IMG/VR virus record: IMGVR_UViG_3300042352_000969
Coordinates: 19,092-83,091 of that record
Origin: a virus
Taxonomy: Duplodnaviria; Caudoviricetes
DNA: 64,000 nucleotides
Strand: one strand, 5' to 3'
Shown: one piece after another, positions 900 to 19,139 of the stretch
Layout: each line of letters begins with the position of its first letter
Position numbering within the stretch: position 1 is the first letter of the stretch
Notes under the pieces: model-generated
Databases searched by the model: none
Told to the model about the DNA's origin: nothing
The model's input: only the letters and a program-made list of their open reading frames with translations
Position numbers and translations under genes: made by a program

Positions 900-900
900 A

Positions 901-967: not shown

Positions 968-1249
968 TTATCGTGTCAAAGCGGGAGGATATTCTGCCAT
1001 TACTAGAGTAACGATGGCGGCAGACAATTGGGTGTCCGTCCATTGACCAGCTTGATCATATGTATCTCCAGACCATACTGTATACCAGTTATGAGCGTAA
1101 GGAGTGGTTGATATCTTTACCAAACTCTTTACAGTCTTACCGATTGGGTCGTCTGTGGTTTGAAGGATTTCGATTTGACTGGTATTAGCAGCTTGTTGAA
1201 TTTCTACAGCACTTGGTAGATTGATAATTGGGAATGTTGGGTCGCTCAT
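968..1249 (-). CDS. Hypothetical protein, 93 aa
   Basis: Clean ORF preceded by a GTGTAA motif. No family recognised. Confidence 0.65.
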   Translation of the reverse strand: MSDPTFPIINLPSAVEIQQAANTSQIEILQTTDDPIGKTVKSLVKISTTPYAHNWYTVWSGDTYDQAGQWTDTQLSAAIVTLVMAEYPPALTR

Positions 1250-1263
1250 ATTTGTATTTAATT

Positions 1264-1269
1264 TTACAC
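1264..1269 (-). promoter_or_regulatory. GTGTAA motif, 14 nt upstream of ATG 1249
   Basis: Plus strand ttacac at 1264-1269; minus strand TAGTGTAA-AATTAAATACAAAT-ATG. Confidence 0.5.
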
Positions 1270-1289
1270 TATTTTTTTATGTATAGAAA

Positions 1290-2114: not shown

Positions 2115-2124
2115 ACCATATAAT

Positions 2125-2580
2125 ATGCCAATTGGTTCGTTTTTAAAGGTATTAATTATGGGTTTGCCGGGATCTGGTAAAACCACATTAGCGGCAGATT
2201 TATCTTATCTTTTAAGCCATCATTATAAATGTCATTGGTTAAATGCAGATAAAGTTCGTGAACAATTCAACGATTGGGACTTCAGTGAAGCTGGTCGTGA
2301 ACGCCAAGGTAAAAGAATGAAAGATTTGGCCGACATGTACGGTCAATATAACGAAATAGTCATTTGCGACTTTGTATGTCCATTTCAAAAAACCAGAAAT
2401 CAATTTGATCCTGATTTTTTAATATTTATGAATACCATTAACGAATCAACATACGAAGATACTAATAAAGTATTTGAGCCGCCCAAAAAGTTTGATATCG
2501 AAGTTCAAAGTAAGAATAGCAGTTATTATTCTAAAATGATATACAACGAATTAGTTCGTAAGTTAAATAAAAAAGTGTAA
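2125..2580 (+). CDS. cysC: Adenylylsulfate (APS) kinase-like protein
   Basis: MGLPGSGKTTLA P-loop, WLNADKVR, DWDFSEAGRERQ, ICDFVCP. Confidence 0.8.
   Translation: MPIGSFLKVLIMGLPGSGKTTLAADLSYLLSHHYKCHWLNADKVREQFNDWDFSEAGRERQGKRMKDLADMYGQYNEIVICDFVCPFQKTRNQFDPDFLIFMNTINESTYEDTNKVFEPPKKFDIEVQSKNSSYYSKMIYNELVRKLNKKV
2575..2580 (+). promoter_or_regulatory. GTGTAA promoter motif, 9 nt upstream of ATG 2590
   Basis: AAGTGTAA-GATATATAT-ATG. Confidence 0.7.
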
Positions 2581-2589
2581 GATATATAT

Positions 2590-3102
2590 ATGGTAGCTTA
2601 TAGTGTACATGATTTAGCTGATGAAATATTCGCGAATGAATTTGAGTATGATAGCGGCTATGCTCAATTTTATTATATTTCAGGATGGCTTGCTAATAAT
2701 GTTGGTTTGTTAAATACAAAAATATACAGCCAATATTCAGTACAAAATTCTAATTTTGAACCAACAGGGTTTTTCCAACAAGAAGAAAGATCAATATATA
2801 AGCAAATGTACTTGTATGAGTTTTATACAAAAAAGACTCGCCAAGTTTTGCGCGGAGTAGATAGCTCTGTAGATTTCGTGACTTTGCGTGAAGGCGACAC
2901 AATGATTACGCGTACAAATAAAAACGAACTTGCAAAAACATATCGTGGATTAGCTAATGACGCTAGAGAAGAAATGGAAAGATTAGTATCTAGTTACAAT
3001 ATTTATCAAGCTGCGCCTGTGCAAGTGGCTGGTGAAGATGGTTCGCCGATATTTACAGGATCTGGATTTTTTTATTATCCATATGGATATGGTCATCCAT
3101 AA
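2590..3102 (+). CDS. Hypothetical virion protein, possibly a head-tail adaptor
   Basis: 170 aa with a late-type motif upstream, next to the neck and tail block. Function inferred from context only. Confidence 0.4.
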   Translation: MVAYSVHDLADEIFANEFEYDSGYAQFYYISGWLANNVGLLNTKIYSQYSVQNSNFEPTGFFQQEERSIYKQMYLYEFYTKKTRQVLRGVDSSVDFVTLREGDTMITRTNKNELAKTYRGLANDAREEMERLVSSYNIYQAAPVQVAGEDGSPIFTGSGFFYYPYGYGHP

Positions 3103-3104
3103 GT

Positions 3105-3140
3105 AAAAAAAGAACCCCAGTCTTTCGACTGGGGTTTTTT
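3105..3140. terminator. Bidirectional intrinsic terminator
   Basis: AACCCCAGTC-TTTC-GACTGGGGTT with an A-run on the left and a T-run on the right, between convergent genes. Confidence 0.9.
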
Positions 3141-3153
3141 ATTGTTATTTATT

Positions 3154-4488
3154 TTAGATCTTGCCAGTGCCAAGTTTGAAGAAGCCTGATGTAATAGAGT
3201 CTAATTGGTTTTGATAACTTCCAGACATAAACAATCCAGCGGTTGTGTCGTTTGCACCGCCGATTTGAACTGAATATGTTAAATCTACAGTTTGATTATC
3301 ACCAAGATTTTCAGAATATGTTTCAGAAGATAATAGTGCGCCTCTGATTTCATAAACAATCTTATTTGCTGATGAGCTATTTTTTAATGTGATTGAAAGA
3401 GTTTGAGTTCCACTTGTTAAAGCGTCAAAAAGATTTTGATCTTTTAGTTCAGAAACAATTGCGCTAATACTTACATCCATATTAATAGGAACATTAACAA
3501 CTCTTGCGAAACCAAATGTATTTCCAAGTCTTTGTAGAATTGTTCTGCTCAATGGAAGAGTAAAACTAAATGATTGAATATGAGCGTCTGCTAGATTTGT
3601 TAAACCAACGCTGTTTCCAAGAGAAAGAACTATATCACCAGGACGCAATGCGCTTACGGAACTTACTCCAGTGGTGAATCCTGTAAAATTAACACCAGCG
3701 GAAGCACCAATTACTCCAGTGAAATCTCTTGAATAATCAAGTTTATATGCAGAACCAATAGAAGTAAATTTAGTAGCTGGAGTAGCAAAAAGATTAATTG
3801 CTGCGCTATTTCCAGTTATTGAGGTTATATTTGCACCGACTACTGATCCTGCTGGCGCACCTGCGGATGTTACGGTTGTGACAGTTTCGGCTGAATCAGA
3901 TTTGATGTTAAAAGCTTCAACAGTTACGCTTGCTGTTGGAATAGCTCCAACAGAAGCTTCAAAACTATATTCGCTAACGAATCCATTACCAATTCCTACT
4001 ATAGTAGAATTTGGGGTCAATGTTCCGCCAACAACGTCTTCACCTTCATCTACAGTTAAAATGTAATAATTATTACCTTGTAGATCAGATAGTAATCCAG
4101 AAATAGCTTGTGCGCCATTAACGATATTTGTATCAGTAACTCCAGTAATATTAAATCCCATTAATCTTTCATTATAGCCATTAGTTACATAATAACTGAA
4201 ATCAAGCCCAACTGTTGGGGCTTCCATAACAATAGAATCGATACGAGCGAGTTTACCGAATTCATTGATATCTTGTCTATTAATTGTAAAATTAAAATTA
4301 CAATTTTGAATGCGATCCATCTTCTTTAGAAGAGAAATACCGGATGCTAGTGAACCTGTATCAGTTGGAGTAAATGGAGAGGCAGTGAATCCAGTACCTG
4401 CGCTATCTACTCCGCTTACTTGTACTCCAGTAGAACTTGGAGCGATAAATAAAGCTTGACTTTGGTATATTACACGATTTCTTGCCAT
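3154..4488 (-). CDS. Putative major tail (tube) protein
   Basis: 444 aa, beta-rich. Lies downstream of neck-like genes, ends at a strong terminator, has a G-free leader and is paralogous to 36431-37534. Confidence 0.6.
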   Translation of the reverse strand: MARNRVIYQSQALFIAPSSTGVQVSGVDSAGTGFTASPFTPTDTGSLASGISLLKKMDRIQNCNFNFTINRQDINEFGKLARIDSIVMEAPTVGLDFSYYVTNGYNERLMGFNITGVTDTNIVNGAQAISGLLSDLQGNNYYILTVDEGEDVVGGTLTPNSTIVGIGNGFVSEYSFEASVGAIPTASVTVEAFNIKSDSAETVTTVTSAGAPAGSVVGANITSITGNSAAINLFATPATKFTSIGSAYKLDYSRDFTGVIGASAGVNFTGFTTGVSSVSALRPGDIVLSLGNSVGLTNLADAHIQSFSFTLPLSRTILQRLGNTFGFARVVNVPINMDVSISAIVSELKDQNLFDALTSGTQTLSITLKNSSSANKIVYEIRGALLSSETYSENLGDNQTVDLTYSVQIGGANDTTAGLFMSGSYQNQLDSITSGFFKLGTGKI

Positions 4489-4558
4489 ATGTTTTTTATT
4501 TGTTTAATTGTTGTTAAATTGTTAATATTTTTTACAGTGATTGGTTGTTTTTGTGAAA

Positions 4559-5419
4559 TTATAATCGAGGGTATCGATAAGTTTTGATTTCAAAATCTAA
4601 AAATCCAATATGAAGAATCGGATTTAATTCTTTAATAACGCTATCGCGAATCTTTGAAGTTTCAACATGGGATATAAAAAGTGTTTGAGAATTATATGCG
4701 TTGTTTAAATTTTTATAATCATATCCCGTAGGATACGCGCCAGTTTTCATTTCATTGAATTCTCCTAATGGATGACCTGTCATTGGTATGATGCTGAATA
4801 TTTCGTTATATGAATCGCCAAATACACTAAGAACTCCGTCTAGCTGATATAAGTTTTCACAAAACGCTACGACTTTAATAATGCATTTTGTTTCATCTTC
4901 ACCGCCAAAAGCGAATGCGGTATTATGAGATGTTTCAATAGAAGCGAATATACAAGGAGTAACAGGATTATATGGAGCAATATAATTTTCAGATACTGTG
5001 AATCTGCTATTTGTTACGAATTTGTTTTCAATTATTAAATTATCTTCTGGCTGATCTGTTATATAACTGTTTACTTCTTTGACTGAATAAGTTCCGGTTA
5101 TGTTCAGGCCCGTTGAAACTCCGCTATTAAAAATAATTCTGCCATTATCAAAATCAATTCTCATACCGCTTGTACCAGTAGATACAAATTGATTATTAAT
5201 TGTGAAACCAGATGGTATTGTTGCGCCAGTTATATTTTTATCATATATCCATTGTTTATATGGAGATCCATAAACAACTTTATCTCCTCCAAGTCGAGGA
5301 TCTTGATAATTATATAATTTTGTTGTATAAGTTTTATAAGCGTCAGCTTTGGTCATTAAAAAATTATCGAACCAAAGAAAAAAACTATTAATAACATTAT
5401 GAGTAAATGTTGGTTTCAT
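4559..5419 (-). CDS. Putative tail terminator / neck protein
   Basis: Immediately upstream of the tail-tube gene; C-terminal GFLDFEIKTYR strand. Context-based call. Confidence 0.4.
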   Translation of the reverse strand: MKPTFTHNVINSFFLWFDNFLMTKADAYKTYTTKLYNYQDPRLGGDKVVYGSPYKQWIYDKNITGATIPSGFTINNQFVSTGTSGMRIDFDNGRIIFNSGVSTGLNITGTYSVKEVNSYITDQPEDNLIIENKFVTNSRFTVSENYIAPYNPVTPCIFASIETSHNTAFAFGGEDETKCIIKVVAFCENLYQLDGVLSVFGDSYNEIFSIIPMTGHPLGEFNEMKTGAYPTGYDYKNLNNAYNSQTLFISHVETSKIRDSVIKELNPILHIGFLDFEIKTYRYPRL

Positions 5420-6006
5420 GCTGTAATTTTATTTAAACTTTTTAAATCTTTAGAGAATTTGTTTATTAAATCAGATATGTATTTTGTATTTTTAAAAACA
5501 GTTCCCGGTCTAACTTGATTGGTTGATGATTGAATGCCGAATCCAGATCGACTGTTTTTTATTTTTTTTAAATAATATCCAAGACCCGATATTCCAGTTT
5601 CGATTCCTCTCGCCCAACTTCTGCCAACTGCCCAAGGCATAGGCGTTATTTCAAATATTTGCACAGCGGTAGGTATATCAAAAATAATTGTACTATCTAA
5701 AGCTTTGTTATTAAAAACAATTCTGTAATTAGATTTTTCTAATAAATCTTCAATGGGTTTTATGGGGTCAGATCCTTCATCGAACCCAATAAAAGAATAT
5801 AAATTAGTTATACCGGCAAGAGTTCCTGATGTATTTGTTGCGTCTATACCTCCTTTTATTTCTTGAGTGATAGGATGATTAAGGAATTCTTGTAAATATT
5901 GATTTTTTATTTTATTGAATTCTTTTTCAACTATTCTATGAACTTCTTTTTGATACTCTTTGTCGGCTTGCAAATCTTGCATTATTTTTATGTAATCTGG
6001 GTCCAT
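5416..6006 (-). CDS. Putative neck / tail completion protein
   Basis: Position between the closure-like and terminator-like genes; ATGA coupling to the next gene. Confidence 0.35.
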   Translation of the reverse strand: MDPDYIKIMQDLQADKEYQKEVHRIVEKEFNKIKNQYLQEFLNHPITQEIKGGIDATNTSGTLAGITNLYSFIGFDEGSDPIKPIEDLLEKSNYRIVFNNKALDSTIIFDIPTAVQIFEITPMPWAVGRSWARGIETGISGLGYYLKKIKNSRSGFGIQSSTNQVRPGTVFKNTKYISDLINKFSKDLKSLNKITA

Positions 6007-6009
6007 ATT

Positions 6010-6465
6010 TTATGCGTCAGGTTTGAGATAAAGAGTATAATATTGATTATCAAATAATCCATGAGGTCTAAATGAAGAATTCAAAACAAATCGTTTTCCA
6101 TCAACATCAAAACGGCGACCATCTTTGATATAATCATAATCGTCTGCTCGCATCTTTATTCTCACAGATCCAACAACGGCTTCTAATTTAATTTGAGAAG
6201 CTAGTCCTGATTCGCTCCAGTATTTTTTACTAATGTCGTCGTTATAAAATATTCTTACTTTAAATGTCTTATAAACTGGTGTATTTACATATGAAGTGGT
6301 TTGACCAGCAGTATTATATAATGGATTAAAGTTAGGGTCAGTAATAATTACAATCTGTGAGGCTTCTTTAAAAACAGTGATTTCGCGAGCAAAAGTCTCA
6401 TGAACATCATCAATAACCGCATTAAGCGCGGTTCTTTCTGAAGCAGATATAAGATTCGTAGCCAT
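6010..6465 (-). CDS. Putative head-closure protein
   Basis: 151 aa, first gene of the neck block; IKDGRRFDVDGKRFVL resembles closure-protein beta hairpins. Confidence 0.35.
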   Translation of the reverse strand: MATNLISASERTALNAVIDDVHETFAREITVFKEASQIVIITDPNFNPLYNTAGQTTSYVNTPVYKTFKVRIFYNDDISKKYWSESGLASQIKLEAVVGSVRIKMRADDYDYIKDGRRFDVDGKRFVLNSSFRPHGLFDNQYYTLYLKPDA

Positions 6466-6520: not shown

Positions 6521-7300
6521 ATGTCAAAGTCACTGTATAGTTTCAATATTTTTAAAACAGCAGAAGTCGAAGAGGACAAGACTGAAACGGTTACAAATGA
6601 ACAAGGCGAACAGGTCGTTCGTACTTACAAGGAAAAAGTTAAGAAACAAATTCCAATAGAAATTCACATTCTTCAGCCAAATAGAAAACAAATGCAAGAA
6701 GCTGACATGGAATTCAGTATTGAAATGAGCCGATGCATCCGAAATGGAATTTTAACAAAGGCGATGTTGCTAAATAAGTATAGTGATACTGGTGGTTTGA
6801 TCAGCGACAATGACGCGAAGATAATGGTTTCTGCCGCTGGAGAAATTGGAGATCTACAAAGTAGACTAACTATTCTTAATCTAAAACCAGAATCGGAACG
6901 TGACGAAGATTACAAGCTAAAGATTGAAAAAGTAACTTCTGAAATTCTTCAACGTCGTAAGACTCTTATTGAAAAAGAAACGAGTTATATGACTTTGTTT
7001 AATCATACTGCCGACATTAAAGCTCAAAATAGAGCTATTCTTTGGTATGTACTAAGTCTAACTCAATTCAAGGATAATAGTAAAAAGAGTCCTGAATATG
7101 AATGGCTATTTCCTGGTAAGACATTTGATATTAAAGAATCTGTCATGTTTGATTATGAAGAAAACAAGAATGAAATTTATGAAAAATGCTATAGTAAACT
7201 AGCTAGTGTTATTAGTTATTGGTTCTTTACCAGCAATACAGAAAAGGAAGAATTCGATAGAATCATTGGAGAAATAGATGGAACAGTCCCAACAGAGTAA
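6521..7300 (+). CDS. Putative tail assembly chaperone 1
   Basis: Helical, charged protein; first of two genes directly upstream of the tape measure gene. Confidence 0.5.
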   Translation: MSKSLYSFNIFKTAEVEEDKTETVTNEQGEQVVRTYKEKVKKQIPIEIHILQPNRKQMQEADMEFSIEMSRCIRNGILTKAMLLNKYSDTGGLISDNDAKIMVSAAGEIGDLQSRLTILNLKPESERDEDYKLKIEKVTSEILQRRKTLIEKETSYMTLFNHTADIKAQNRAILWYVLSLTQFKDNSKKSPEYEWLFPGKTFDIKESVMFDYEENKNEIYEKCYSKLASVISYWFFTSNTEKEEFDRIIGEIDGTVPTE

Positions 7301-8273
7301 ATATAAAAAAGCTTTTAGGGATATAAAAAATGGATTCTCTGAGATTAAGGTTTTAGAGAATCTTTTTTATTTAAAGCATTTGTCTTTGGAAGATCAAGTC
7401 GATATTGATCAAATTTATGATGTCTATTTTGATCAAGCTAAAAAACGCGGCGTTCCTACGAATAGCGAAACTTTAGAGCGGTTGGTTGACGAAAAACAAT
7501 GGTCAAAGAAACAAGAATCTTTAATAACACAAGAACAAGATTTAATAGAAAACTTCAATAAACAGAAAAAAGCTCTTTATTTAAAATCAGAAATAATGAG
7601 AGTAAATGCGGACATCGAGTCGGCGCAAAAACGTTTAAACGATTTAAAAAATACAAGATCATCGTTCTTTCAAAGAACCGCCGAAAGTTATGCCGAAGAA
7701 AGAGTTAATGATTATTACATATTAAAATGTTTATATAAAGATAAAAAGTTAAGTGAAGAAGCTTTTGAAGAAGATGAGTTCGATAATATTGATTCGGAAA
7801 CTCTCACTTGTATTATAAAACAATACTCAGAGGTCTATAAAAACATAAACGACAACACGATTCAACATTTAATTTTGCAAGATTTTTTTAATTTGTATAT
7901 GCCGTTTGCTGAAAATCCTACTGAATTCTTCGGTAAATGTGTGTGCGAGCTTACTTATAATCAAGTAAAATTACTTATTTATGCTCGATTTTTTAAGAAC
8001 GTTTTTCAGCAAAATGATAAAATGCCTCAAGATATTAAAGACGATCCCGATAAAATCATTGATTATGTGAACGCCAATGAAAACGCCAAGAAAACAATTG
8101 AAAAAAAGAACAACAAAGAAAATCAAGCTAGTTCAATAGTTGGTGCAACATCAGAAGACCTTGAATATATAGGATTAAAGGCCAAAGGTCAAAAGACTTT
8201 ATCTTTAGCAGATGAAGCTAAAAAGAAAGGCGGCTCATTGAGTATGGACGATATGATGAAAATATTCGGTTAA
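7278..8273 (+). CDS. Putative tail assembly chaperone 2
   Basis: Helical / coiled-coil protein directly upstream of the tape measure gene. Confidence 0.5.
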   Translation: MEQSQQSKYKKAFRDIKNGFSEIKVLENLFYLKHLSLEDQVDIDQIYDVYFDQAKKRGVPTNSETLERLVDEKQWSKKQESLITQEQDLIENFNKQKKALYLKSEIMRVNADIESAQKRLNDLKNTRSSFFQRTAESYAEERVNDYYILKCLYKDKKLSEEAFEEDEFDNIDSETLTCIIKQYSEVYKNINDNTIQHLILQDFFNLYMPFAENPTEFFGKCVCELTYNQVKLLIYARFFKNVFQQNDKMPQDIKDDPDKIIDYVNANENAKKTIEKKNNKENQASSIVGATSEDLEYIGLKAKGQKTLSLADEAKKKGGSLSMDDMMKIFG

Positions 8274-8286
8274 TAGTAATTTTAAC

Positions 8287-8292
8287 GTGTAA
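8287..8292 (+). promoter_or_regulatory. GTGTAA promoter motif, 9 nt upstream of the TMP start
   Basis: ACGTGTAA-ATAAAGCAT-ATG. Confidence 0.7.
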
Positions 8293-8301
8293 ATAAAGCA
8301 T

Positions 8302-11300
8302 ATGGCCGTTCAAATCAATGTCGCCGCCAATCAAGCAGCATTAACAGCTTCTATTCAAGCTGGTGTTCAAGCGTACAATCAAAGATTCGCTCAGAACAAT
8401 CCGATTAATTTAAGTATTAATCAACGAGCTTTCTCTCAGCCGCTTGGAAGAATGACTGGTGACGTTAAGGATTTTGAAGCGGCCCTTGCTGCTTCTAATG
8501 CTCGCGTTATTGCGTTCGGAGCTTCGACTGCCGTTCTTGGCGGTGTTATTCGTAGTTTTAAAGAATTAGCTAATGTTACTATCGATGTTGAAAAGAATCT
8601 TGCTGATATTAATCGTGTATTCGGATTAACTACTAGTCAATTACAAAAATTTAGTACAGATTTATTTAGTGTTGGTAAACAAACGGCTTCTTCATTTGAT
8701 GATGCATCTAAAGCTGCTCTTGAATTCTCTCGTCAAGGTTTAAAAGCTGAAGAAGTTTTGATAAGAACAAAAGACGCATTAACTTTAGCAAGAGTCGCTG
8801 GAATTAGTACTGCAAATTCTGTTGATGCTTTAACTTCTACTATAAACGGTTTTGCTGCAACTGGAGTAACAACGACTCAAATATTAAACAAGCTTGTAGC
8901 TGTCGAACAAGATTTCGCAGTTGGCGCAGGAGACTTGGCTGAAGCGTTATCTCGTACAGGTCAAGCGGCGCAAGAAGCGGGAGTTAGCTTGGATCAATTA
9001 AATGCATTGGTAACAGCCGCTCAACAAAGTACAGCAAGAGGCGGCGCAGTTATTGGTAACGCATTAAAAACAATTTTTACTCGTTTACAACGTACAGAAA
9101 CTCTTGACCAATTAGAAGCTTTCAATATAGCTGTAAGAGATGTACAGGGAAATACTTTACCAGCAGTCTCTATTCTACAAAATTTTGCAGGTGCTTATAA
9201 AGGTTTAGCTGACGCTCAAAGAGCGCAGTTATCTGAACAAGTCGCTGGTGTTTATCAGGTTAACATTCTTAAAGCTATTGTAGGTGATTTGAATAAATCT
9301 CAAGGCGTGTATGCTGGAGCTTTACAAAGAGGCGCATCAGCAACAAATGAAGCTGAAGTCGCTACTGCAAAACTAAATCAAACTCTCGACGCTTTATTAA
9401 AGCAAACCGCCACTTCTACACAACAACTAGCAAATAATATTGGTAAAGTAACATTTGAACCATTGGCTAGATATGGTACAGAACAATTGAAATCACTTGT
9501 CGAAAGTATGAACGAAATTCTTGAAGGAGAAGGAGTTGGTTCTACTTTTGCTAATGGTTTATTAAAAGGAATTAGAAACGTAATAGCTGGTCCCGGCGCT
9601 ATTGCCGCTTTCTTTACGCTTTTCAAGTTAATACAAAACTCTTTCACTTATCTTGCTCAGGCTTTGCCTCAGATCGCTGGTATCACGACAGAAACTCAAA
9701 ATAGAAAAAACATTGAACAATCTATTTTGCAAATCATGCAGCAACAAGGGCCGGTATCGCAAGCTCTTGCTGGCTCTATGGGCAATCAAGCTGCACAAGC
9801 TCAGTTGCTGCTTCAATTAGCAAGACAGCAAACAGCAGAATATCAAATACAGTCAACTCTTGCAAAACAATTAGCCACTCAATTAGCCGGTCAAGGTGTG
9901 CGAGTAAAAGGATCTGGCGGTTTGCAGGTCACTCGCGCAGGAGGTTATATTCCTGCTGCAACAAGAATGGCTGAAACAGTTGGCGCACAAGCTGGTGGTT
10001 ATGCTCCCGGTAAAGTGGTGAAATCTCCTGTTGGTGGAGTAATGAATACTGCGGAAGATGTTAAATACGTTCCCGGTTTCGCTCAACCTTTTATTAATCC
10101 TCCTGCTGGATCAAAAGCTGGCCGCACACATAGACAAAATGCTATAAGTAGAACGGGTGTTGATCCGTATACGGCTGGTGGATTTATACCTAATTTTGCA
10201 AAATTAGATAAAAGAGATTATAGTTTTCAGAGGCCAAATGGAGGCGGTGTTGACAAAAAACAAAGAGCTTACAGTAATCATGCTATACAGATAAGAGAAA
10301 TGAGTTCATCGGATCTTGGTGCTGAAAAAAATTTAGATTTAGTAGGAAAAAATTTAGATTCTGGTTTTGACAATAAAACTAAAAAACCAAATGCTGTCTA
10401 TGATTGGATTTCTGGAAAAATAGATGTTATAAAATATTTGCAAAAAAAAGATGTTGATTCAGCCGTGTCTGCTATGTGGTTTGGTTCGATTCAAGGGGAC
10501 CAAAATTTAATTAAAACAGGTCAAAGTATTGGTTTAACAGATGCTGATTTAGAGGCAGTTTTTAAGACAACTACATCTAAAGTTGGATTTACGTTAAAAG
10601 ACTTACAAAAGAAATATGAACTATCACAAAATGAAGAAGCCGCTAAAAACAATAAGCTTTTTAAATATAAAAGTGGCTCTAAAAAGGGTGAATTAATTAC
10701 AACTTCGGAAGGTTTTAAAAGCTCTTTAAATGGAGATTATCAAAATTTTGTCGGAGACGCTTATGAAAAATTAATTTCAAAACTTCCAGGAATATCTGGA
10801 GCGTATACAATAAGTGACAAATCAACGTCAGCCGCAGACTTAATACCAACGGGGCCGAATGCTATTCAAGGTATTGAAGTTAAAGCAGGTGAGGCGTATT
10901 TAAGTCAGTTGATTAAAAAAGCAGTTAGAATAAATATTAATGGCAGAGCGGAAGATGTGGCGCAAAAAGATTTAGACTTTGGAACTCTTCCTGTTTATCA
11001 ACCATTTGGAAGCGAAATCGGAGCTTCTGCTAATGGTTTTATTCCTAATTTTGCTACACCAATGAGTACCGCAAGTATTCCTTGGTTCAAAAAATATTCC
11101 AGTAAATATAAAAACACTACTGGTGATACAGACCTTTTCAAGATGGGAGATTTTCCTACTTATGGAAGAGGTTTAGATCACGAATATGCAAAAAAAGGAA
11201 ATTCCGCTATGCTTTCTTACTTACATGAAGATTTTGTAAGATCTGCATTGAATATAGCTTTAGCTTCAAAAAAAGTAATAAGACCCGCAGATGTTGGGTT

Positions 11301-14300
11301 TAAAGATAAACCTGTAAGTGATATATCAAATGAGAATGATTTTGATTTATTATATAGAATAGCTGATGGTTCATACGATCTGATTGAGTTGAAACAAGAT
11401 TTCAAAAATATTTCTGGATCTGTTACTGGATTCATGAATAAAAAACTTGAGAACGCTAAAAAAGAAAATCCAGAATTAGTTAAAAAAGTCCGTTCGATGA
11501 TTGCTGTTTCAAACAGACCAAAATTTACTGATCCTACTGGTAGAAATGCTGGTGCAAATTTCAGTGAATTTGAAATGGCCGCCGCATCAATTGTTAAAGA
11601 TAAGTATTCGAATGTTGATCCATCAACAAGCGCAAAACTCACAAAAGTTACAGATGGTTTATTAAGAAGATACGAAGCCAAGAAAAATACTACATCTGAT
11701 GGTTTTATTCCTAATTTTGCTTCAATGATATCTTCTTCTATAAAAGGAAAAGGAAATATATCAGCCATAAAAACTGGCAAAAATAATTATGAAATCGAAG
11801 GCGTTGAAGTTGGTAAAAAGTTTAGAGGTCAAGGATTAGGTTCTCAATTATATGGAAGCATTGCTCAAAAAATTGGTTCCGGCAGTACTATTAAATCTGT
11901 ATTATTACCACAAGAACAAGCTTTAGCAGATTACGCGAGCGGCAAATCTATTCCTGCAAAAGCTATTTTTCCTCAATTATCTTGGGCAAAAATGGCTAAG
12001 AGTTCTAAGCTTTTAATCAATGGTAAGGAGATTGCAATGTCTGATTTTGAAAACGGAATAGCTGGTCACAAATACAATGCCGCAAAATTAGATATGGCAT
12101 TGATTGAATTAGTTAATTCTCATGCTTCAGGGTTTATTCCTAACTTTGCGTATAAACAAGCAGTAATGGGATTAGAAGAAAGCATGAGCGGAGAAAAAGC
12201 CGTATTCGATAGTAAACCTTTCCCACACATTAGAAACAAGAGTCAGCCAACATTCAGTTCCGCAATATCTGATCATGGTGGTTTAAGTAATGCTTTGAGT
12301 GATTCAATGAGAGGGCAGAAGTCTGCTGGATTGATGAATAAAGGATATATTCCAAATTTTGCTAAAGGAAATAAAGGTAAAAAAAATCAACCTCGAAATA
12401 CTCAATCAAGCTCCAATGCTGTTGAAGTAGAAAGTTATATTGAAAATTACGCTAAAGAAGCTCTAAGAGATATTAAAGGCACTTATAAATCGACAATTGA
12501 TAAAATAAAATTAATGTTTTCTAAGGTTGATTCATCAGTATCAAGTGTTGGAATAGATGCAGTAAAAAGTTTAAGAGAACAAACTTTTAAGCAAAGCAGA
12601 AATGCACCTGAAAAAAATACACCAAAATCGACATTTTCAGAAAATTTGTCGAAAGCTAGTACAGCTATAGCTATTGCTGGACCAACGTTGGCTGGATTTG
12701 CGGAGCAAGCTATGTATGGTAATAGAAAACGTACAGAGATGACTTCTGGAGAAAGAATGGGTCAGTCAGCTTTAAGCACTGGTTTAAGTTCTTTATCTAC
12801 AGGCGCTGGTATTGGAGCTTCATTTGGTTTGCCTGGAGCAATTATTGGAGGAGCTATAGGAGGTTTAGTTGGTTTAACTTCAGCTCTGAATGCAACAATT
12901 TTAACTGCTGAAGAACTTGCGCAATTAAATGATGAGCAAGCACAAAAGTCGCAAGCTAGTATATCTGCTGCATCATCTTATATTGAAGCTCAAAAATCTT
13001 TATCAGAGATGATTGTGAATGGTGCATCTTCAAATGATATCGAAAATGCTACTAAAAAATTATCTTCAGGATTTAATGAGATTGCTGATGTTAAATTACA
13101 AGAAATATTTAACTCGACAGGAGGAAATATTGCAGAAATGACAAAACAATTACAAGAATATACAAATGAAGCGACCTCTCGACAAGCATTTAAAAAAGCC
13201 ATAACATCAAAAGGAACTGCTGAAGATTTAGCAAAAAATTTATCAATAGGATTAAATACAAAAGAAAAAAAACAAACATTTAGTTCTTTTTTAGCAGAAA
13301 TTTCTATACAAAAAGAGTTAGAAAAAGCTTCTTTAGAGGGTTACCAATACGATGAACAAACTTTATCGGCTCGTTTAAAGAATAATAAAGAAATTAAAAA
13401 AGCTCTTGATGCCGTTTTGTTGTCTCAAGGAGTAACAAAAGAAAGTGAAAATTATGCTTCAGAATTTTCTGCGGCTATAGAATCATTTTTATCTAAAACT
13501 TTTGAAAAAGCTGAGTCTTTAATCAATAAATCTGATGTAGGCTCTAATGTGCAGAAAAATATAAATGATTTTAGACAAGCAGCTACTAAATCTTTTGGAG
13601 AAATTTTTAGAAAAATAGAAAGAGATTTAAATAAAAATCTTTTTGACATAGCTTTGTCTTTTGAGAAAGATTCAAGCACTAGAAGAATACAATCTTCTAT
13701 TCTTGATTTTTCAACAAACTTTCAAGATAGTATAAATTCTTTTGTATCTAGTAACCTTCCAGACATTAGAAAATTTGATTTTGCCGCCGTAACCGCTGGT
13801 CAAAAAGCTCAAATGTTATTGCAAAAATCTCAACAAGATTATGACAAAGCTGTTGCAGAACAAGACAATGAAAAATCAAATTTTTCAACAAAAACCGCAC
13901 AAGAACTTAGTGGATCTTTTAAATCTACTCTTTCAAATTCACAAGTAAACGCTGAATTTTATAAAAATAAAGTTTTGCCTCAAATTCAAAGCGGAAATTA
14001 TAGTGGAGATGTAAGTGGCATTATTAGCGGTTTAAAAGAAGCTCAATTGGCTAAAGTTAAAGAAACAAGATCTTCTGCTGAAGAAGCTTTAGGTAAACAA
14101 GGTTTTAATTTTGGAAGCTCTGAAGAAATAAAAAAGACGTTAGGGGATTTAGCGAAGATTTTAGAAAATCCTGCTCTTTCAGAAGAAAAAAAATCAAAAA
14201 TTATTGCATATCAACAAGAATTAATAAATCTTCAAGAAACCACTTTAAAATTCGCCAATCAAGCTGAAAAAGATAAGTTATCCGCTATTTTAACAGAAAA

Positions 14301-16461
14301 AGCTGAAGCTCAAACTTTATTTGAACAAAAACAAACCAACGCTAAAAAAGAATTAGAAATAAACAAACAATTAAACGAAGCAAGAATAGCTGTAGATAAA
14401 GATATAGCTATTGAAAAAGCTAAGGTTGACAAGCAAATATTAATGCGCATGGAAAGTATGAAAGACGTTTCAGCGCAAATTGGTAACACTCTTGAAATAA
14501 GCAAAGCAAATATAAATGCTTCCATCGCTGCTCTACAATCGAATCTTGAAGATTCAAGACAAAATTATGGAAAAGGTTCTTCACAAATTTTAGAAAGAAA
14601 GATTGATATACAGGATAGTATTCTTAAACAACAAAGAGAATTAGAAGATCAAACAATAAAATCAGAAATTCAACAAAGAATATTGCAAATAGCCGTAGAA
14701 CAAGAAAATACTGCCGCGACTTTGGAATTGAATAAAACAATAATGACGTTGGTTGAATCTCAATTAAGAGGAGCGTTAGGCGGTTCACAAAAAATAGAAG
14801 AAATAAATGCTACTGCTAAAAGAATGGGATCTTTTGCTTCAGCTAATATTGATAAAAAATATGGCCCTGGAACATACGCTCAATATCAAGCTCTTCAACG
14901 CATACAAGAATCCCGAACTGCATCTGCTTCAATTAATAGTAATTATAATACTAGCAATTTTGCGGCAAATATGGAAACCGCAGGTTTTAACAAAACCGAT
15001 GAAAACGGTAACTTAATGATGTCTACACAAGAGCAAATTAATTTCTTATCAAAAGAAGAATTAAAAGCTAAAAAAGCTAATAATATAGTTCTAGAAGGAA
15101 CCATTAAACGCTATAAAGAAGAAATAAGAGTAAAAGAAAGATCTTTATCAATCACAAGAGATCAACTTGATAAATCAATTGCCTTAAAAAATGAAGAAAG
15201 TAGAGCGATGGTTACTTTTGGTGGAAGATTATCTGCTGGTTTTGGTAAACTAAGCGATCAAGCCGATAATATAATTCATAACTTGGCGGAAGAGTTGCCT
15301 ATGAAGTTTGCTGATAATATGTCTAGCGCACTAATGGAAGTAGCGAAAGGAACAAAGTCTATTGGTGACGCTTTCCAAGACATGGCTATAAACTTTGGTC
15401 AAATGATTATGCAAGAAGTTATGAGAGCGGCTATAGCTAAAACATTAGGTAATATAGGAATTGGATCTTTATTCGGTCAAGCTGGAGGAAACGTTTCTGC
15501 AAGAGGAATTGGTTATCAGCATGGAGGAGTAATCAGAGCTAATAACGGTCAATATGTAAGCGGAATGGGTTCTGGAGATAGATATCCAGCAATGCTTGAA
15601 AATGGTGAATATGTTTTAAATAGAAAAGCAGTAAAAGAATTAGGTGGTAAAAAATCTTTAGATGCATTTAATTTTCAACAAGCTCCTCGTTTCGCTTCTG
15701 GTGGCAATGTTAATATGGAAGCTGAAATGGCTTTGAACAAAGATCAAGAAATGGATTATACAAAAAATCTATTATACAATAATTCTAACGTTGGAGCTAT
15801 AAATGAAAACGATTATACTGCTTATGCATATTCTGAAAATGATTATTTCAAGAAAATGAGAGAAAAGGCAATAGCAAATGAGCAAAAACGTGTTCAAGAA
15901 GCTTTCGCTAAAAAACAAAAAAATGCTCAGTTGATTAGTAGCATAGTTGGAGCAGCGGGATCTATGTTTTTAGCTGCTGGAATGAGTGGAATGGCAAAAG
16001 CAGCAGGACCAACCAAACCTCCGGTTCCAATTTCAAAATTTCAAACCGCAGGATTTGCTCAAAGAGGTGGAATGATAGGATTTAATTCAGGTGGATTTGT
16101 TCCTCATGGATCTAGATTATCAGATACTATTCCAGCTTTATTAACTGGCGGCGAATATGTAATGAATAATGCGGCAGTTAGAAAATATGGATTGGGCGAA
16201 ATGAATGCCATGAATGCTGGCGCAGTATCTAATAATAGCAATTCGAACGCTACAAATACAAATAATAACACTAACAATAACGCTACAAATATTTCTATCA
16301 ACATTGATAGATCTGGTAAAGCTACTTATGGTTCTGATACAAGTAGTTATGAAAAGAATGACATTGCATTCTCTAAACAAATGGCAAAGCGTGTTGCTGA
16401 TATAGCTAAAGGCGTAATTTCAGACGAAACAAGATACGGTGGTAAAATAAATCAAAGATAA
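8302..16461 (+). CDS. Tail tape measure protein (TP901-type core) with embedded enzyme-like cassettes
   Basis: N-terminal TMP core (LAEALSRTGQAAQEAGVSLDQL...VIGNALKTIFTRL), long coiled coils, C-terminal GG...SDTIPALLTGGEYV motifs. Lies between the chaperones and the tail-tip genes. Confidence 0.9.
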   Translation: MAVQINVAANQAALTASIQAGVQAYNQRFAQNNPINLSINQRAFSQPLGRMTGDVKDFEAALAASNARVIAFGASTAVLGGVIRSFKELANVTIDVEKNLADINRVFGLTTSQLQKFSTDLFSVGKQTASSFDDASKAALEFSRQGLKAEEVLIRTKDALTLARVAGISTANSVDALTSTINGFAATGVTTTQILNKLVAVEQDFAVGAGDLAEALSRTGQAAQEAGVSLDQLNALVTAAQQSTARGGAVIGNALKTIFTRLQRTETLDQLEAFNIAVRDVQGNTLPAVSILQNFAGAYKGLADAQRAQLSEQVAGVYQVNILKAIVGDLNKSQGVYAGALQRGASATNEAEVATAKLNQTLDALLKQTATSTQQLANNIGKVTFEPLARYGTEQLKSLVESMNEILEGEGVGSTFANGLLKGIRNVIAGPGAIAAFFTLFKLIQNSFTYLAQALPQIAGITTETQNRKNIEQSILQIMQQQGPVSQALAGSMGNQAAQAQLLLQLARQQTAEYQIQSTLAKQLATQLAGQGVRVKGSGGLQVTRAGGYIPAATRMAETVGAQAGGYAPGKVVKSPVGGVMNTAEDVKYVPGFAQPFINPPAGSKAGRTHRQNAISRTGVDPYTAGGFIPNFAKLDKRDYSFQRPNGGGVDKKQRAYSNHAIQIREMSSSDLGAEKNLDLVGKNLDSGFDNKTKKPNAVYDWISGKIDVIKYLQKKDVDSAVSAMWFGSIQGDQNLIKTGQSIGLTDADLEAVFKTTTSKVGFTLKDLQKKYELSQNEEAAKNNKLFKYKSGSKKGELITTSEGFKSSLNGDYQNFVGDAYEKLISKLPGISGAYTISDKSTSAADLIPTGPNAIQGIEVKAGEAYLSQLIKKAVRININGRAEDVAQKDLDFGTLPVYQPFGSEIGASANGFIPNFATPMSTASIPWFKKYSSKYKNTTGDTDLFKMGDFPTYGRGLDHEYAKKGNSAMLSYLHEDFVRSALNIALASKKVIRPADVGFKDKPVSDISNENDFDLLYRIADGSYDLIELKQDFKNISGSVTGFMNKKLENAKKENPELVKKVRSMIAVSNRPKFTDPTGRNAGANFSEFEMAAASIVKDKYSNVDPSTSAKLTKVTDGLLRRYEAKKNTTSDGFIPNFASMISSSIKGKGNISAIKTGKNNYEIEGVEVGKKFRGQGLGSQLYGSIAQKIGSGSTIKSVLLPQEQALADYASGKSIPAKAIFPQLSWAKMAKSSKLLINGKEIAMSDFENGIAGHKYNAAKLDMALIELVNSHASGFIPNFAYKQAVMGLEESMSGEKAVFDSKPFPHIRNKSQPTFSSAISDHGGLSNALSDSMRGQKSAGLMNKGYIPNFAKGNKGKKNQPRNTQSSSNAVEVESYIENYAKEALRDIKGTYKSTIDKIKLMFSKVDSSVSSVGIDAVKSLREQTFKQSRNAPEKNTPKSTFSENLSKASTAIAIAGPTLAGFAEQAMYGNRKRTEMTSGERMGQSALSTGLSSLSTGAGIGASFGLPGAIIGGAIGGLVGLTSALNATILTAEELAQLNDEQAQKSQASISAASSYIEAQKSLSEMIVNGASSNDIENATKKLSSGFNEIADVKLQEIFNSTGGNIAEMTKQLQEYTNEATSRQAFKKAITSKGTAEDLAKNLSIGLNTKEKKQTFSSFLAEISIQKELEKASLEGYQYDEQTLSARLKNNKEIKKALDAVLLSQGVTKESENYASEFSAAIESFLSKTFEKAESLINKSDVGSNVQKNINDFRQAATKSFGEIFRKIERDLNKNLFDIALSFEKDSSTRRIQSSILDFSTNFQDSINSFVSSNLPDIRKFDFAAVTAGQKAQMLLQKSQQDYDKAVAEQDNEKSNFSTKTAQELSGSFKSTLSNSQVNAEFYKNKVLPQIQSGNYSGDVSGIISGLKEAQLAKVKETRSSAEEALGKQGFNFGSSEEIKKTLGDLAKILENPALSEEKKSKIIAYQQELINLQETTLKFANQAEKDKLSAILTEKAEAQTLFEQKQTNAKKELEINKQLNEARIAVDKDIAIEKAKVDKQILMRMESMKDVSAQIGNTLEISKANINASIAALQSNLEDSRQNYGKGSSQILERKIDIQDSILKQQRELEDQTIKSEIQQRILQIAVEQENTAATLELNKTIMTLVESQLRGALGGSQKIEEINATAKRMGSFASANIDKKYGPGTYAQYQALQRIQESRTASASINSNYNTSNFAANMETAGFNKTDENGNLMMSTQEQINFLSKEELKAKKANNIVLEGTIKRYKEEIRVKERSLSITRDQLDKSIALKNEESRAMVTFGGRLSAGFGKLSDQADNIIHNLAEELPMKFADNMSSALMEVAKGTKSIGDAFQDMAINFGQMIMQEVMRAAIAKTLGNIGIGSLFGQAGGNVSARGIGYQHGGVIRANNGQYVSGMGSGDRYPAMLENGEYVLNRKAVKELGGKKSLDAFNFQQAPRFASGGNVNMEAEMALNKDQEMDYTKNLLYNNSNVGAINENDYTAYAYSENDYFKKMREKAIANEQKRVQEAFAKKQKNAQLISSIVGAAGSMFLAAGMSGMAKAAGPTKPPVPISKFQTAGFAQRGGMIGFNSGGFVPHGSRLSDTIPALLTGGEYVMNNAAVRKYGLGEMNAMNAGAVSNNSNSNATNTNNNTNNNATNISINIDRSGKATYGSDTSSYEKNDIAFSKQMAKRVADIAKGVISDETRYGGKINQR
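10177..12363 (+). repeat. Five dispersed G(F/Y)IPNFA peptide repeats inside the TMP
   Basis: The G of the motif is at 10180, 11035, 11701, 12130 and 12343 (aa 627, 912, 1134, 1277, 1348). Copies 2 and 3 share 23 identical nt (atggttttattcctaattttgct). Confidence 0.95.
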
Positions 16462-16468
16462 TTAAAAC

Positions 16469-17380
16469 ATGAAAGGCGCGATTACAAATTATGAAAACAC
16501 ACTATTCATGGATGGTGTTGCTTTATCTGGGGTTATATCTTTTGATGGATCTTATAATGTAGAAACTGTACCTATTAATGTTATAGGAAAAGGATTTTGC
16601 AAACAAGTGGTTTCGCAAGTTCCATCAGCTTCGGTTTCTATAACAAGATATCTTGTTAATAATGATCCTGTATTTGGTTTAACTGGAGATAGCGATAATT
16701 ATACAGCTTCATTTATAAATGGAGGTTTAACATATCAAGGTAAAAATTTTGGTTTTACAAATGGTTATTTATCTTCTTTTGGAATATCATGTAGTGTTGG
16801 AGAAGTGCCTCAAATACAATCTTCTTTTCAAATATTTGGAAACATGGGTCCATCTATTGATCCATCTGGAAATAATATATCTTCAGCAGCATTTGTGCCG
16901 CAAGTTAAAAATATATCAGTAACATGTAATAATTCTAGTACTAATAGAGTAAAAGATTTTAGTATTGATTTTACTTGTAAGAAAAACGCTATTTATGGAT
17001 TAAGCGCTTCAAACGCTCAATTTCCTATTGAAGTTCAAAATATTTTTCCAATAGAAGTTGGCGGATCTTTTACATTAGAAGTGGACGATTATCAAACTAA
17101 AAATATATTTGATATTCTAAGTTCTGAAAGTTTAAATAGTTTTATTATAGATGTTAGAGGCACTGTATTGATTGATCAATTTTTAGTTACTTTTGATGAT
17201 TTAGAATTGGTAACTAGCGATACGAATGAATCTTTTGATGTATATAGAAAATTAGAAGATTCTATACCAATCTTTAATTTTAACACTTCTAATGCTATAA
17301 TAATAGCCGAGCAAATTAATTCGACAGCAGATGACTTATTGAGTGTAAAACTATCGTATAGAACATATTTAAATAACTAA
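16469..17380 (+). CDS. Post-TMP tail protein (distal-tail / tail-tube-like fold)
   Basis: NGYLSSFGISCSVGEVPQIQSSF resembles NGFVSEYSFEASVGAIPTASV of the 3154-4488 protein. Confidence 0.45.
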   Translation: MKGAITNYENTLFMDGVALSGVISFDGSYNVETVPINVIGKGFCKQVVSQVPSASVSITRYLVNNDPVFGLTGDSDNYTASFINGGLTYQGKNFGFTNGYLSSFGISCSVGEVPQIQSSFQIFGNMGPSIDPSGNNISSAAFVPQVKNISVTCNNSSTNRVKDFSIDFTCKKNAIYGLSASNAQFPIEVQNIFPIEVGGSFTLEVDDYQTKNIFDILSSESLNSFIIDVRGTVLIDQFLVTFDDLELVTSDTNESFDVYRKLEDSIPIFNFNTSNAIIIAEQINSTADDLLSVKLSYRTYLNN

Positions 17381-17381
17381 T

Positions 17382-19139
17382 ATGGGAACAAAATTTACAG
17401 ACTTATCAGCAATAACAAGTTCGACAATAACAGATAATTTTGTTTTTGCTGTCGCTACGACAACAGAAACGGATCAATTGTCATTAAATGAGCTTCAAAA
17501 GTCATTTACTGGATTAACCGCTAGAACGACAAATGGTATAAAAATAGTAGGAAAAACTAAACCAAGTGGTATTTTTGTTAGTGATAATGGATTAGTGGGA
17601 GTAGATAATAACTCTCCAGACGTAGCATTAGAAGTAGGCGATTCTTTTCTTTCTACAAATGTGGCTCAAGTAAGAGTAACCGCTGGTTCATCTTCAAGAC
17701 AAGCGTCTTATTCTTTAAAAGACACTAGCGTTTTATGGAAGTTTACTAAAAAAGCTAGTGATACAGATTTTTATATTGAAGTTTCTCAAGATGGCGGGGC
17801 TACGCCTTCGACTACTGGAGTTTTTAATATAGATGTAAGCGGTAATGTTGGTATCTTTAATGGTTCAACAGCTTTATCTAATAAGTTTTATGTTTCTGGA
17901 GGAACTATAAAATTCGAAAGCGGAGTTTCTGGTTTTCTTTTTGATCCTTCAACAGCAGAAATAAAGACTTCTTCTGCTAATGATATTTTTTATATAAATA
18001 AAACAAATAATGATGATGTTGTTTTAGGTAATAATGTTTTATACGTGGATAATAATACATCGGTTCCTTTTATAGGAATTAATAATATTACTCCAGCTTA
18101 TCCTTTAGATATAAAAGGTTCGGGTCAATTAGGAAGATATGGAAATAATACAACGGCAACTACTAGTTTATCTTTTGAAAATACCGCAAGAACTGGATAC
18201 ATAGGAGTATATAATTCAAATTTTCAAATAGGTCCAACAAATTCTTTGTCTACAAACAATTTAGTTTATGATTTAGCTAATAGAAAATTAGGATTAGGAA
18301 CTACAACACCAACTGCAAAAATACATGTAGTTACTGACACTGCCGAAAATAGCGTTTTTGAATGTTATAATACTGAAACTTGTAAAAGCACTATTTTAAA
18401 CAGTTATGCAAGTGGTCCAGCTAAAACTGCATTTCAATCATTTGCTACTGGAACAGCTAGTAGTCAAATAACAAAATGGTCAATTGGTTTATTAAACAGT
18501 ATTAGTCCAGCATTTGATAGTGTTTTTGCTTTTTCATTAGGCGGTAGTTTAAGTGCGTCTGCTATAAAAGCTTATTTAAATGTTGATGGAGATTTGGATA
18601 TAAAAGGAGGAATAACCACAAGCGGAAATTATACTAAAGGAAAATTTGTTCAAGTTTTTAAGACTAGATTGACAGGAAACAATATTTATTTCGATCCATT
18701 TTCTGAATCTTCAAGTTCAAGCCCTAGTGGTCATAATTCAGTTTTATGCCCATTTGGAATAACTCCTTACGCTGGCAGAATAGAAAAAATTCAAATAATA
18801 AGTTCAGATAACATTAGCTCATATGCTGATGCTAGATTTGAAATAGCGGCGGTAACTCCAACGGCTAATACTCCTATAGGAGTTATAGATCAAACTACAT
18901 TTTTACCATGTTCTACTAGCGCTACAATAAGTGGTGCAATAGGATATTTAGAGATAGCATCTATAACTAGAAATCAACTATTAACTTTAAGTAGAACTCA
19001 ATTTACAAATACAACAGCTTTTGCTTCTGGACAATTATTGCAATATAGAGTATGTCAAGATGCTAATGCTTCTAGTCCAGGTCAAACCACAGCTAAGAAT
19101 TTTACAATTATGTCAACAGTTTCTTTTACAGTGACATGA
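17382..19139 (+). CDS. Tail fibre-like protein
   Basis: Repeated (V/I)G(I/V/L)xxxxPxxxLxV fibre motifs (VGVDNNSPDVALEV, IGINNITPAYPLDI, LGLGTTTPTAKIHV). Confidence 0.6.
   Translation: MGTKFTDLSAITSSTITDNFVFAVATTTETDQLSLNELQKSFTGLTARTTNGIKIVGKTKPSGIFVSDNGLVGVDNNSPDVALEVGDSFLSTNVAQVRVTAGSSSRQASYSLKDTSVLWKFTKKASDTDFYIEVSQDGGATPSTTGVFNIDVSGNVGIFNGSTALSNKFYVSGGTIKFESGVSGFLFDPSTAEIKTSSANDIFYINKTNNDDVVLGNNVLYVDNNTSVPFIGINNITPAYPLDIKGSGQLGRYGNNTTATTSLSFENTARTGYIGVYNSNFQIGPTNSLSTNNLVYDLANRKLGLGTTTPTAKIHVVTDTAENSVFECYNTETCKSTILNSYASGPAKTAFQSFATGTASSQITKWSIGLLNSISPAFDSVFAFSLGGSLSASAIKAYLNVDGDLDIKGGITTSGNYTKGKFVQVFKTRLTGNNIYFDPFSESSSSSPSGHNSVLCPFGITPYAGRIEKIQIISSDNISSYADARFEIAAVTPTANTPIGVIDQTTFLPCSTSATISGAIGYLEIASITRNQLLTLSRTQFTNTTAFASGQLLQYRVCQDANASSPGQTTAKNFTIMSTVSFTVT

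Follow-up and report, generated by a model that had tools for sequence, protein, structure and literature searches.

Exchange of enzyme-like modules at a repeated heptapeptide in a giant phage tape measure protein

Introduction

Tape measure proteins (TMPs) are usually regarded as passive rulers, which sometimes carry a cell-wall enzyme. What else such a ruler can carry is the question raised by the TMP gene P0001, found in a 64,000-nucleotide (nt) stretch of the Caudoviricetes record IMGVR_UViG_3300042352_000969 (positions 19,092 to 83,091 of that record; hereafter the window). An earlier note, made from the letters of the window alone, held that copies of a heptapeptide, G(F/Y)IPNFA, divide a non-helical part of this protein into enzyme-like modules, and that the peptide marks these as exchangeable cassettes of a virion-delivered effector system. 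Here we ask whether the modules are exchanged, what they resemble and what the peptide might do.

Results

A heptapeptide delimits four modules

The open reading frame (ORF) of the gene matches the Pfam family PhageMin_Tail with 96.9 bits against a gathering cut-off of 33.2 (E 1.9e-27) and PHROG tape-measure families with a best E of 6e-47. It is followed by lambda-type tail-tip genes (minor tail proteins and a gpJ-like central fibre). The five copies of G(F/Y)IPNFA and the GGYIP variant listed in the earlier note were all located in this ORF (Table 1), and the modules between the copies measure 278, 215, 136 and 64 amino acids (aa), as it had claimed. A degenerate DNA pattern of G[FY]IPNFA has exactly these five sites in the 64-kb window and none in 100 shuffles; from the amino-acid composition of the TMP, 7e-6 copies would be predicted. 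Two copies had further been said to have 23 identical nt in common; these are copies 2 and 3, and the common string is ATGGTTTTATTCCTAATTTTGCT.

Modules are exchanged at the motif

A search with aa 540-1400 of the TMP retrieved 265 giant TMPs, the best 120 of which were analysed, and IMG/VR supplied 52 loci (L001-L052) whose N-terminal unit is 64-98% identical to that of the window. Three of these loci (L001, L003 and L005) share 97-98% identity with the window across aa 1-636, beyond which their cassettes differ. At copy 1, nucleotide identity to L002, L003 and L005 is ~97% through the motif and random from the next codon. At copy 2, identity to six loci (L012, L048, L017, L010, L020 and L023) rises from ~30% to over 90%, and at copy 3 it falls from over 90% to ~30% in five relatives. 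Identity to L051 and L010 jumps at copy 4, and identity to L006 collapses after copy 5. Measured in 30-nt bins, flips between ~30% and over 90% were thus observed at all five motif positions, in independent pairs.

The same picture emerged from the ends of high-identity alignments (≥85% identity, ≥150 nt) among 41 distinct arrays. Within 15 nt of a motif lay 688 of the 767 distinct ends, a share of 0.90, whereas chance would give 0.07 and 200 randomisations gave at most 0.095. Taken together, the identity flips and the alignment ends demonstrate cassette exchange: almost certainly, whole modules have been replaced, added or dropped by recombination with junctions in or next to the 21 nt of the motif. 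This exchange yields dozens of in-frame module combinations. The proposal that the motif marks exchangeable cassettes and the sites of recombination junctions is thereby borne out, and the different cassette sets that the earlier note had suggested looking for were found in relatives in which the N-terminal part of the TMP is 97-98% identical.

Module families follow a fixed grammar

The inter-motif domains, whose cataloguing had also been suggested, were obtained by splitting the 120 TMPs and the IMG/VR loci at the motif. Across these 120 TMPs and 51 viral contigs there were ~37 module families, with 71 distinct module orders among the best 120 of the 265 database TMPs. Relatives also carry the variants GFMPNF, GFTPNF, GSIPNF and GFIPHF, which our first motif pattern missed, so that the module counts are slight underestimates. 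The order is N-terminal unit, motif (at ~aa 627), slot 1, an optional M11, M1, zero to four optional modules, M2, motif and C-terminal unit. Slot 1 is always filled, by any of ~11 unrelated families, and M1 is near-universal, with M12 as its alternative. An all-against-all hhalign comparison of 28 module families merged only M5/M8, M18/M21, M3/M23 and M10/M24; the slot-1 families are therefore not one diverged family and their diversity is real. We infer an arms race behind this diversity.

When 1.84 billion representatives were searched exhaustively with profiles, M1, M2 and M3 turned up only inside TMPs or fragments of them, save for three weak M1 hits. A minimal layout of motif, one module, motif, M2 and motif characterises distant TMPs with lengths of 1,750-1,980 aa, for some of which the contigs measure up to 174 kb. 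Several of these, as well as another distant TMP of ~1,970 aa, carry the full G[FY]IPNFA at ~aa 545, the position equivalent to the decayed copy GGYIPAA of the window.

Such modules might be selfish in-frame cassettes resembling homing nucleases, for which the DNA of the motif serves as target or insertion site and which the TMP merely tolerates. We consider this quite improbable. M1 and M2 keep their positions in almost every member and hence are not mobile, many modules are not nuclease-like (one is GNAT-like, and others have 52, 64 or 75 aa), and the motif is kept as a peptide in distant single-module TMPs. Furthermore, no Hint or intein domain was found, and the Asn of the motif is followed by Phe, not by Cys, Ser or Thr.

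Bins that contain M2-bearing TMPs (P0151, P0154 and P0180) are labelled Candidatus Nanopelagicales and Candidatus Staskawiczbacteria, and a TARA ocean sample is among the sources. This hints at a wide aquatic distribution of M2-bearing TMPs, the bin labels being ones that may reflect mis-binned phage contigs.

Resemblance of the modules to enzymes

AlphaFold2 (AF2) models of modules 1 and 2 are globular. The predicted local distance difference test score (pLDDT) is 74.7 for module 1 and 75.7 for module 2, the latter modelled with 28 relatives, and the predicted template-modelling score (pTM) is 0.75-0.77 across the two modules (0.77 for module 2). In both, a D...(D/E)xK signature is conserved and is preceded by an acidic residue. 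In module 2, E58, D97 and K113 never vary and position 111 is E or D throughout; these E/D/(E/D)xK residues lie on a helix and two consecutive strands, which is the layout of restriction-endonuclease-fold nucleases. The invariant residues of module 1 (E189, D213, E226 and K228) are placed on the same kind of core. Fold-match lists are dominated by nucleases for both modules, every score being weak; the top Foldseek rows for module 2 are bunyavirus cap-snatching endonucleases, the R2 endonuclease, AvaII and HincII, at E 0.037 and weaker. The language-model Atlas offered, as leads only, R.HinP1I and SmaI for module 1 and Tox-REase-7 for module 2. In Pfam, module 1 matched no family and module 2 matched SduA_C alone, weakly (E 0.12). 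It is because the fold lists are uniform and the residue pattern is present, rather than because of any single score, that we read modules 1 and 2 as PD-(D/E)xK nuclease-like globular domains.

A different fold is suggested for M6, a slot-1 family found in relatives and not in the window. Its profile matches staphylococcal thermonuclease structures over 116 residues (E 4.6e-8), and its invariant residues (D14, D16, T17, R31, D36 and E39) can be read as the metal-binding and catalytic set of that nuclease. A single M6 sequence scores 19.6 bits against Pfam SNase, under the cut-off of 21. By its profile, M6 is a clear staphylococcal-nuclease homologue, so that slot 1 would hold nucleases of at least two unrelated folds. 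For other families there was less to go on: Pfam and PHROGs gave almost no matches for 20 representative modules, and a profile search against PDB found nothing for M7 and M4.

Module 3, scanned alone, matches Pfam Acetyltransf_1 with 22.8 bits against a gathering cut-off of 20.7, over 35 residues only; within the whole protein the score is 17.9 bits, under the cut-off. Its acetyl-CoA motif A (R/Q-x-x-G-x-G/A) appears as R-G-Q-G-L-G in KKFRGQGLGSQLY. The profile search against PDB returned YjdJ alone, weakly (E 0.019), and among the 1.84 billion representatives no free-standing homologue of module 3 was found. Copies in L002, L006 and L010 are 96-99% identical. We consider module 3 to be GNAT-like, a likeness that extends over the acetyl-CoA motif only.

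Module 4 is represented by 91 distinct sequences, and 34 columns are invariant across 26 relatives. When its profile (M2) was used to search for longer proteins, 82 hits were obtained, the distant 1,750-1,980-aa TMPs among them. Those with a Pfam family or a source name are mostly TMPs, the rest are unnamed and mostly fragments from short contigs, and none of the 82 points to a setting outside TMPs.

The earlier description of the modules as globular and enzyme-like, two of them PD-(D/E)xK-like and one GNAT-like, thus agrees with Pfam, the invariant residues (E...D...(E/D)xK in modules 1 and 2), the AF2 models and the weak fold lists, as far as these can tell, and none of the regions models as coiled coil or disorder. 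It is conceivable that the modules are inert spacers that adjust the length of the ruler and that their enzyme-like features are vestigial, given that TMP length sets tail length and that most module families lack a family match. However, residues of catalytic type do not vary within families whose overall identity is 25-50%, the models are globular and not extended helices, and the constantly filled slot 1 draws on unrelated families. Taken together, these observations make a spacer role very improbable, and we regard the modules as enzyme-like domains.

A modular carrier at the border of two linkage blocks

The TMP is a modular carrier that consists of an N-terminal TP901-type unit (aa 1-626), four folded modules and a C-terminal unit (aa 1355-2719). 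Judged by eye, the long C-terminal region has a helical, low-complexity (coiled-coil-like) appearance. The N-terminal unit ends, at 9889-10179 of the window, in GG[FY]-type elements (GGYIPAA and GGYAPG), and this end resembles the surroundings (16060-16130) of a GGFVPHG element near the true C-terminus (nt 16090-16110) with E 0.002, in one comparison only. From these likenesses the giant TMP looks like two TMP-like units joined via the array. When GenBank phages were searched by tblastn, the array region (aa 534-1366) had zero matches and the N-terminal unit was at most 28% identical to cultured phages; therefore there is no cultured relative. The phage is an uncultured aquatic siphovirus.

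Table 1 Features of the tape measure gene and the adjoining genes (nucleotide positions in the window)
Feature	Position	Strand	Remarks
Two upstream ORFs, 259 and 331 aa	6521-7300 and 7278-8273	+	23-nt overlap; co-inherited with TMP N-terminal unit
TMP gene P0001	8302-16461	+	single ORF, 2,719 aa
PhageMin_Tail (TP901-type TMP) domain	8668-9249	+	aa 123-316, Pfam PF10145
First hydrophobic Gly/Ala-rich segment	9568-9636	+	aa 423-445, Kyte-Doolittle scan
Decayed motif copy GGYIPAA	9943-9963	+	aa 548-554; local sequence like GGFVPHG
Motif copy 1 GFIPNFA	10180-10200	+	aa 627-633
Module 1 (family M8, variable slot 1)	10201-11034	+	278 aa, PD-(D/E)xK nuclease-like
Motif copy 2 GFIPNFA	11035-11055	+	starts aa 912
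Module 2 (family M1, near-universal core)	11056-11700	+	215 aa, PD-(D/E)xK nuclease-like
Motif copy 3 GFIPNFA	11701-11721	+	starts aa 1134
Module 3 (family M3, optional)	11722-12129	+	136 aa, GNAT-like
Motif copy 4 GFIPNFA	12130-12150	+	starts aa 1277
Module 4 (family M2, near-universal last module)	12151-12342	+	64 aa, highly conserved
Motif copy 5 GYIPNFA	12343-12363	+	starts aa 1348
C-terminal TMP body	12364-16461	+	hydrophobic segments, long helical-looking region, terminal GG[FY] elements
Second hydrophobic glycine-zipper-like segment, directly after array	12802-12909	+	aa 1501-1536, Kyte-Doolittle scan
Downstream tail genes	16469-19139	+	co-inherited with TMP C-terminal half

The array forms the border of two co-inherited blocks within 6521-19139, and the relatives (L001-L052) re-assort both. 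The segment upstream of the TMP gene is present over its whole length, at 94-96% nt identity, in L001, L004, L006-L008, L034 and L042; L002, L003 and L005 cover it partly, the locus ending there. The C-terminal half of the TMP and the downstream tail genes are 94-97% identical at the nt level in L029, L045 and L051, and the downstream tail genes have no match in L002-L008. Since the array lies at the block border, the same joints may let phages re-assort host-range modules while the ruler gene stays unbroken.

The two ORFs upstream of the TMP gene, which lack a Pfam or PHROG match, might encode chaperones or tube proteins. They occupy the usual place of tail assembly chaperone G/GT pairs; no obvious slippery heptamer was seen in their overlap. 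Recognisable head or tube genes are absent from the vicinity of the TMP, an uncommon arrangement for a siphovirus, and the minus-strand genes directly preceding the tail block (135-6465) have no family match.

Farther along the window, a collagen-like tail fibre of 1,674 aa is encoded at 30695-35719. Its centre (~33.7-35.1 kb) has a GC content of 0.35-0.38 compared with ~0.28 nearby and shows long spurious ORFs both in alternative frames and on the complementary strand, features typical of a repeat region. Genes for a glycosyltransferase, two nucleotide-sugar epimerases, HAD-type hydrolases, a phosphoheptose-isomerase/PNK-like protein and a methyltransferase lie at 38353-52060. This sugar-nucleotide block could serve the modification of DNA or of surface sugars, and if it modifies phage DNA it might shield that DNA from TMP-borne nucleases. 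Replication and recombination genes follow at 52079-62547 (ribonucleotide reductase, UvsX-like recombinase, DnaB-like helicase, primase and exonuclease), consistent with a lytic phage that has recombination machinery of its own.

Selection acts mainly on the peptide

Over 510 distinct contexts, the motif is conserved (in %) as G99 F91/Y8 I78/V18 P100 N100 F98 A80, between unconserved flanks. Its codons vary, with a uniformity only modestly above background (ATT 0.79 vs 0.52; CCT 0.75 vs 0.47), and the peptide is kept, together with M2, in distant TMPs whose M2 identity is only 35-40%. Because the codons vary and the peptide persists in distant TMPs, selection acts mainly on the peptide, which most likely acts on the protein. 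The 21 nt of the motif are a convenient in-frame crossover point and not the reason for the conservation of the peptide. A role solely as a DNA-level recombination anchor was rejected on the same two grounds.

An intein reading was likewise rejected. Inteins have a Hint domain, a C-terminal HN and a +1 Cys, Ser or Thr; the residue that follows the Asn of the motif is Phe in 98% of copies, and Pfam scans revealed no Hint family.

Discussion

The exchange of modules leaves the question of what the array does. TMPs fill the tube lumen as trimers and exit ahead of the DNA (PMC10038345), and it is on account of this position and order of exit that the array is most likely an enzyme carrier. On balance we lean towards virion-delivered enzymes, ready-made for host entry: the array would carry nucleases, an acyltransferase and other enzymes into the host at infection. 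Within such a scheme, the peptide would be a processing site cut after Asn, by which the modules are separated yet kept in the tail, and its coding sequence would supply, as a by-product, in-frame microhomology for cassette exchange. We put cleavage at the motif forward tentatively, by analogy. The more detailed version, in which the heptapeptide is cut after Asn by a protease or by self-cleavage triggered at assembly or ejection and the lumen stores pre-cut, unfolded enzymes that refold in the host, is more doubtful still.

The analogy comes from phage T5, whose TMP pb2 is cleaved behind R1127 into pb2* and pb2C; the cut separates a hydrophobic stretch from an enzyme domain, and both products are kept in the tail (Linares et al. 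2023, PMC10038345). The T5 record reads NSFVPR/AEGG at this site (the slash marks the cut). Alignment on F-[IV]-P places the T5 scissile bond opposite the bond between N and F of GFIPN-FA, with three residues in common. The hydrophobic segment at aa 1501-1536 is comparable in position to the stretch beside the T5 cleavage site (PMC10038345). Unlike pb2, which has a single site and a single C-terminal peptidoglycan-directed enzyme, the TMP of the window has five motifs, at which cleavage is only predicted. Lambda gpH is cut near a Gly-rich ATGGF/ATGGY region (PMC12617516), which is like the GG[FY] elements that end the N-terminal unit of our TMP. According to a 2025 study, only the T5 and lambda TMPs have been shown to be cut, and the cleavage site and catalysis of gpH are unresolved (PMC12617516).

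Several points weigh against delivery with cleavage after Asn. His replaces Asn in some motif copies (GFIPHFA), and the likeness to the T5 site is limited to F-[IV]-P. The tail tube lumen of siphoviruses is ~4 nm wide, and folded domains of 15-30 kDa, present in triplicate, would be too bulky for it, so that storage would have to be unfolded or elsewhere. Active nucleases made late would endanger the phage's own DNA unless held inactive. Finally, Pfam and PHROG scans detected no protease in the TMP or its neighbours.

The absence of a recognisable protease nearby would suit an alternative in which the motif is never cut and is instead a joint or docking strand that binds the tube lumen, a tail assembly chaperone or neighbouring TMP chains, the modules remaining tethered and working at the entry pore. 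A peptide conserved between unconserved flanks fits a short linear binding motif equally well, and GG[FY]-type elements recur in TMP C-terminal regions (aa 548 and 2598 in the window; ATGGF and ATGGY in lambda gpH). Moreover, the authors of the work on the Thermus phage P23-45 TMP, described below, report no cleavage and propose action at the pore. On the other side, the closest sequence analogue with data, T5 FVPR/A, is a cleavage site, and tethered enzymes, however different their targets, could act only at the pore. We regard an uncut joint as possible, though doubtful.

A conserved short peptide at every junction of unrelated domains has the look of polyprotein processing sites, and strict conservation at such junctions is a general pattern of viral polyproteins. 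The modules could accordingly be parts of a late polyprotein, excised in the producing cell before tail assembly and acting there, for example on host or replicating DNA, so that only the ends of the TMP enter the tail. Such processing would remove the problem of packing the lumen, and the N-terminal unit does look like a small TMP complete in itself, with a GG[FY] element at its end. However, it is hard to see why late enzymes should be built into the tail protein of lowest abundance, and the TMP halves, although in different linkage blocks, are always fused via the array. The confinement of M1, M2 and M3 to TMPs, apart from the weak M1 hits, argues in the same direction, as does the retention of the cut pieces in the T5 tail. 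A late polyprotein therefore seems improbable to us, and we return to the array as a carrier of delivered enzymes.

Among the nearest known systems is gp96 of Thermus phage P23-45, a TMP fused to a functional virion RNA polymerase, by which pre-early genes are transcribed (Chaban et al. 2024, PMC10770324). Both are giant TMPs with a cytoplasm-type enzyme, and the gp96 enzyme is a virion component that works as infection begins. Whereas gp96 has one fixed N-terminal enzyme and no boundary peptide, array or exchange, the modules described here lie inside the chain, are many and occur in varying combinations.

Polyvalent proteins of phages and conjugative elements resemble the array in that unrelated effector-type domains stand in one chain; theirs are thought to enter with the DNA and then to separate. 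Many of them carry metallopeptidase (MPTase) domains, which have been proposed to process them (Iyer, Burroughs, Anand, de Souza and Aravind 2017, PMC5512222). The TMP array likewise holds two or more unrelated effector-type domains in one phage polypeptide. The polyvalent-protein paper (PMC5512222) contains 0 mentions of tape measure proteins and describes no boundary peptide. With Pfam and PHROGs, we found no MPTase or polyvalent hallmark domain in the TMP or in 20 representative modules, most of which have no family and could hide a peptidase.

In polymorphic toxins, a short peptide (VENN in CdiA, DPxGL in Rhs) marks both the boundary between carrier and toxin and the point of recombination, and the Rhs motif is also self-cleaved. 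Unlike these bacterial secretion substrates, which have one C-terminal toxin and an immunity gene, the TMP holds tandem cassettes inside a virion protein, with no evident immunity gene. Peptidoglycan-hydrolase motifs, mentioned in PMC12617516, are embedded in the TMPs of mycobacteriophages and other phages and are used during entry; in contrast to these enzymes, which are directed at the cell wall and are neither fenced nor shuffled, the modules here look nucleic-acid- or protein-directed. Our literature searches found no paper on motif-fenced TMP modules, and the string 'GFIPNF' was absent from the full texts searched. This agrees with the claim that the architecture had no prior description, with P23-45, T5 pb2, polyvalent proteins and the motifs of polymorphic toxins as close precedents.

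In this family, the central part of the ruler offers combinatorial slots for cytoplasm-type enzymes, filled by at least 37 families in 71 orders, most of them functionally unassigned, and the repeated peptide offers a handle on the old question of TMP cleavage. If the modules are injected, they would represent, in aquatic phages, a large pool of first-minute proteins for taking over the host or countering its defences, and the array would be a natural plug-in site for engineering cargo into phage tails. If the heptapeptide is indeed cut after Asn, it would be the first consensus site for TMP cleavage, and the array would be a virion counterpart of polymorphic toxins, an injected toolkit shuffled at the same peptide.

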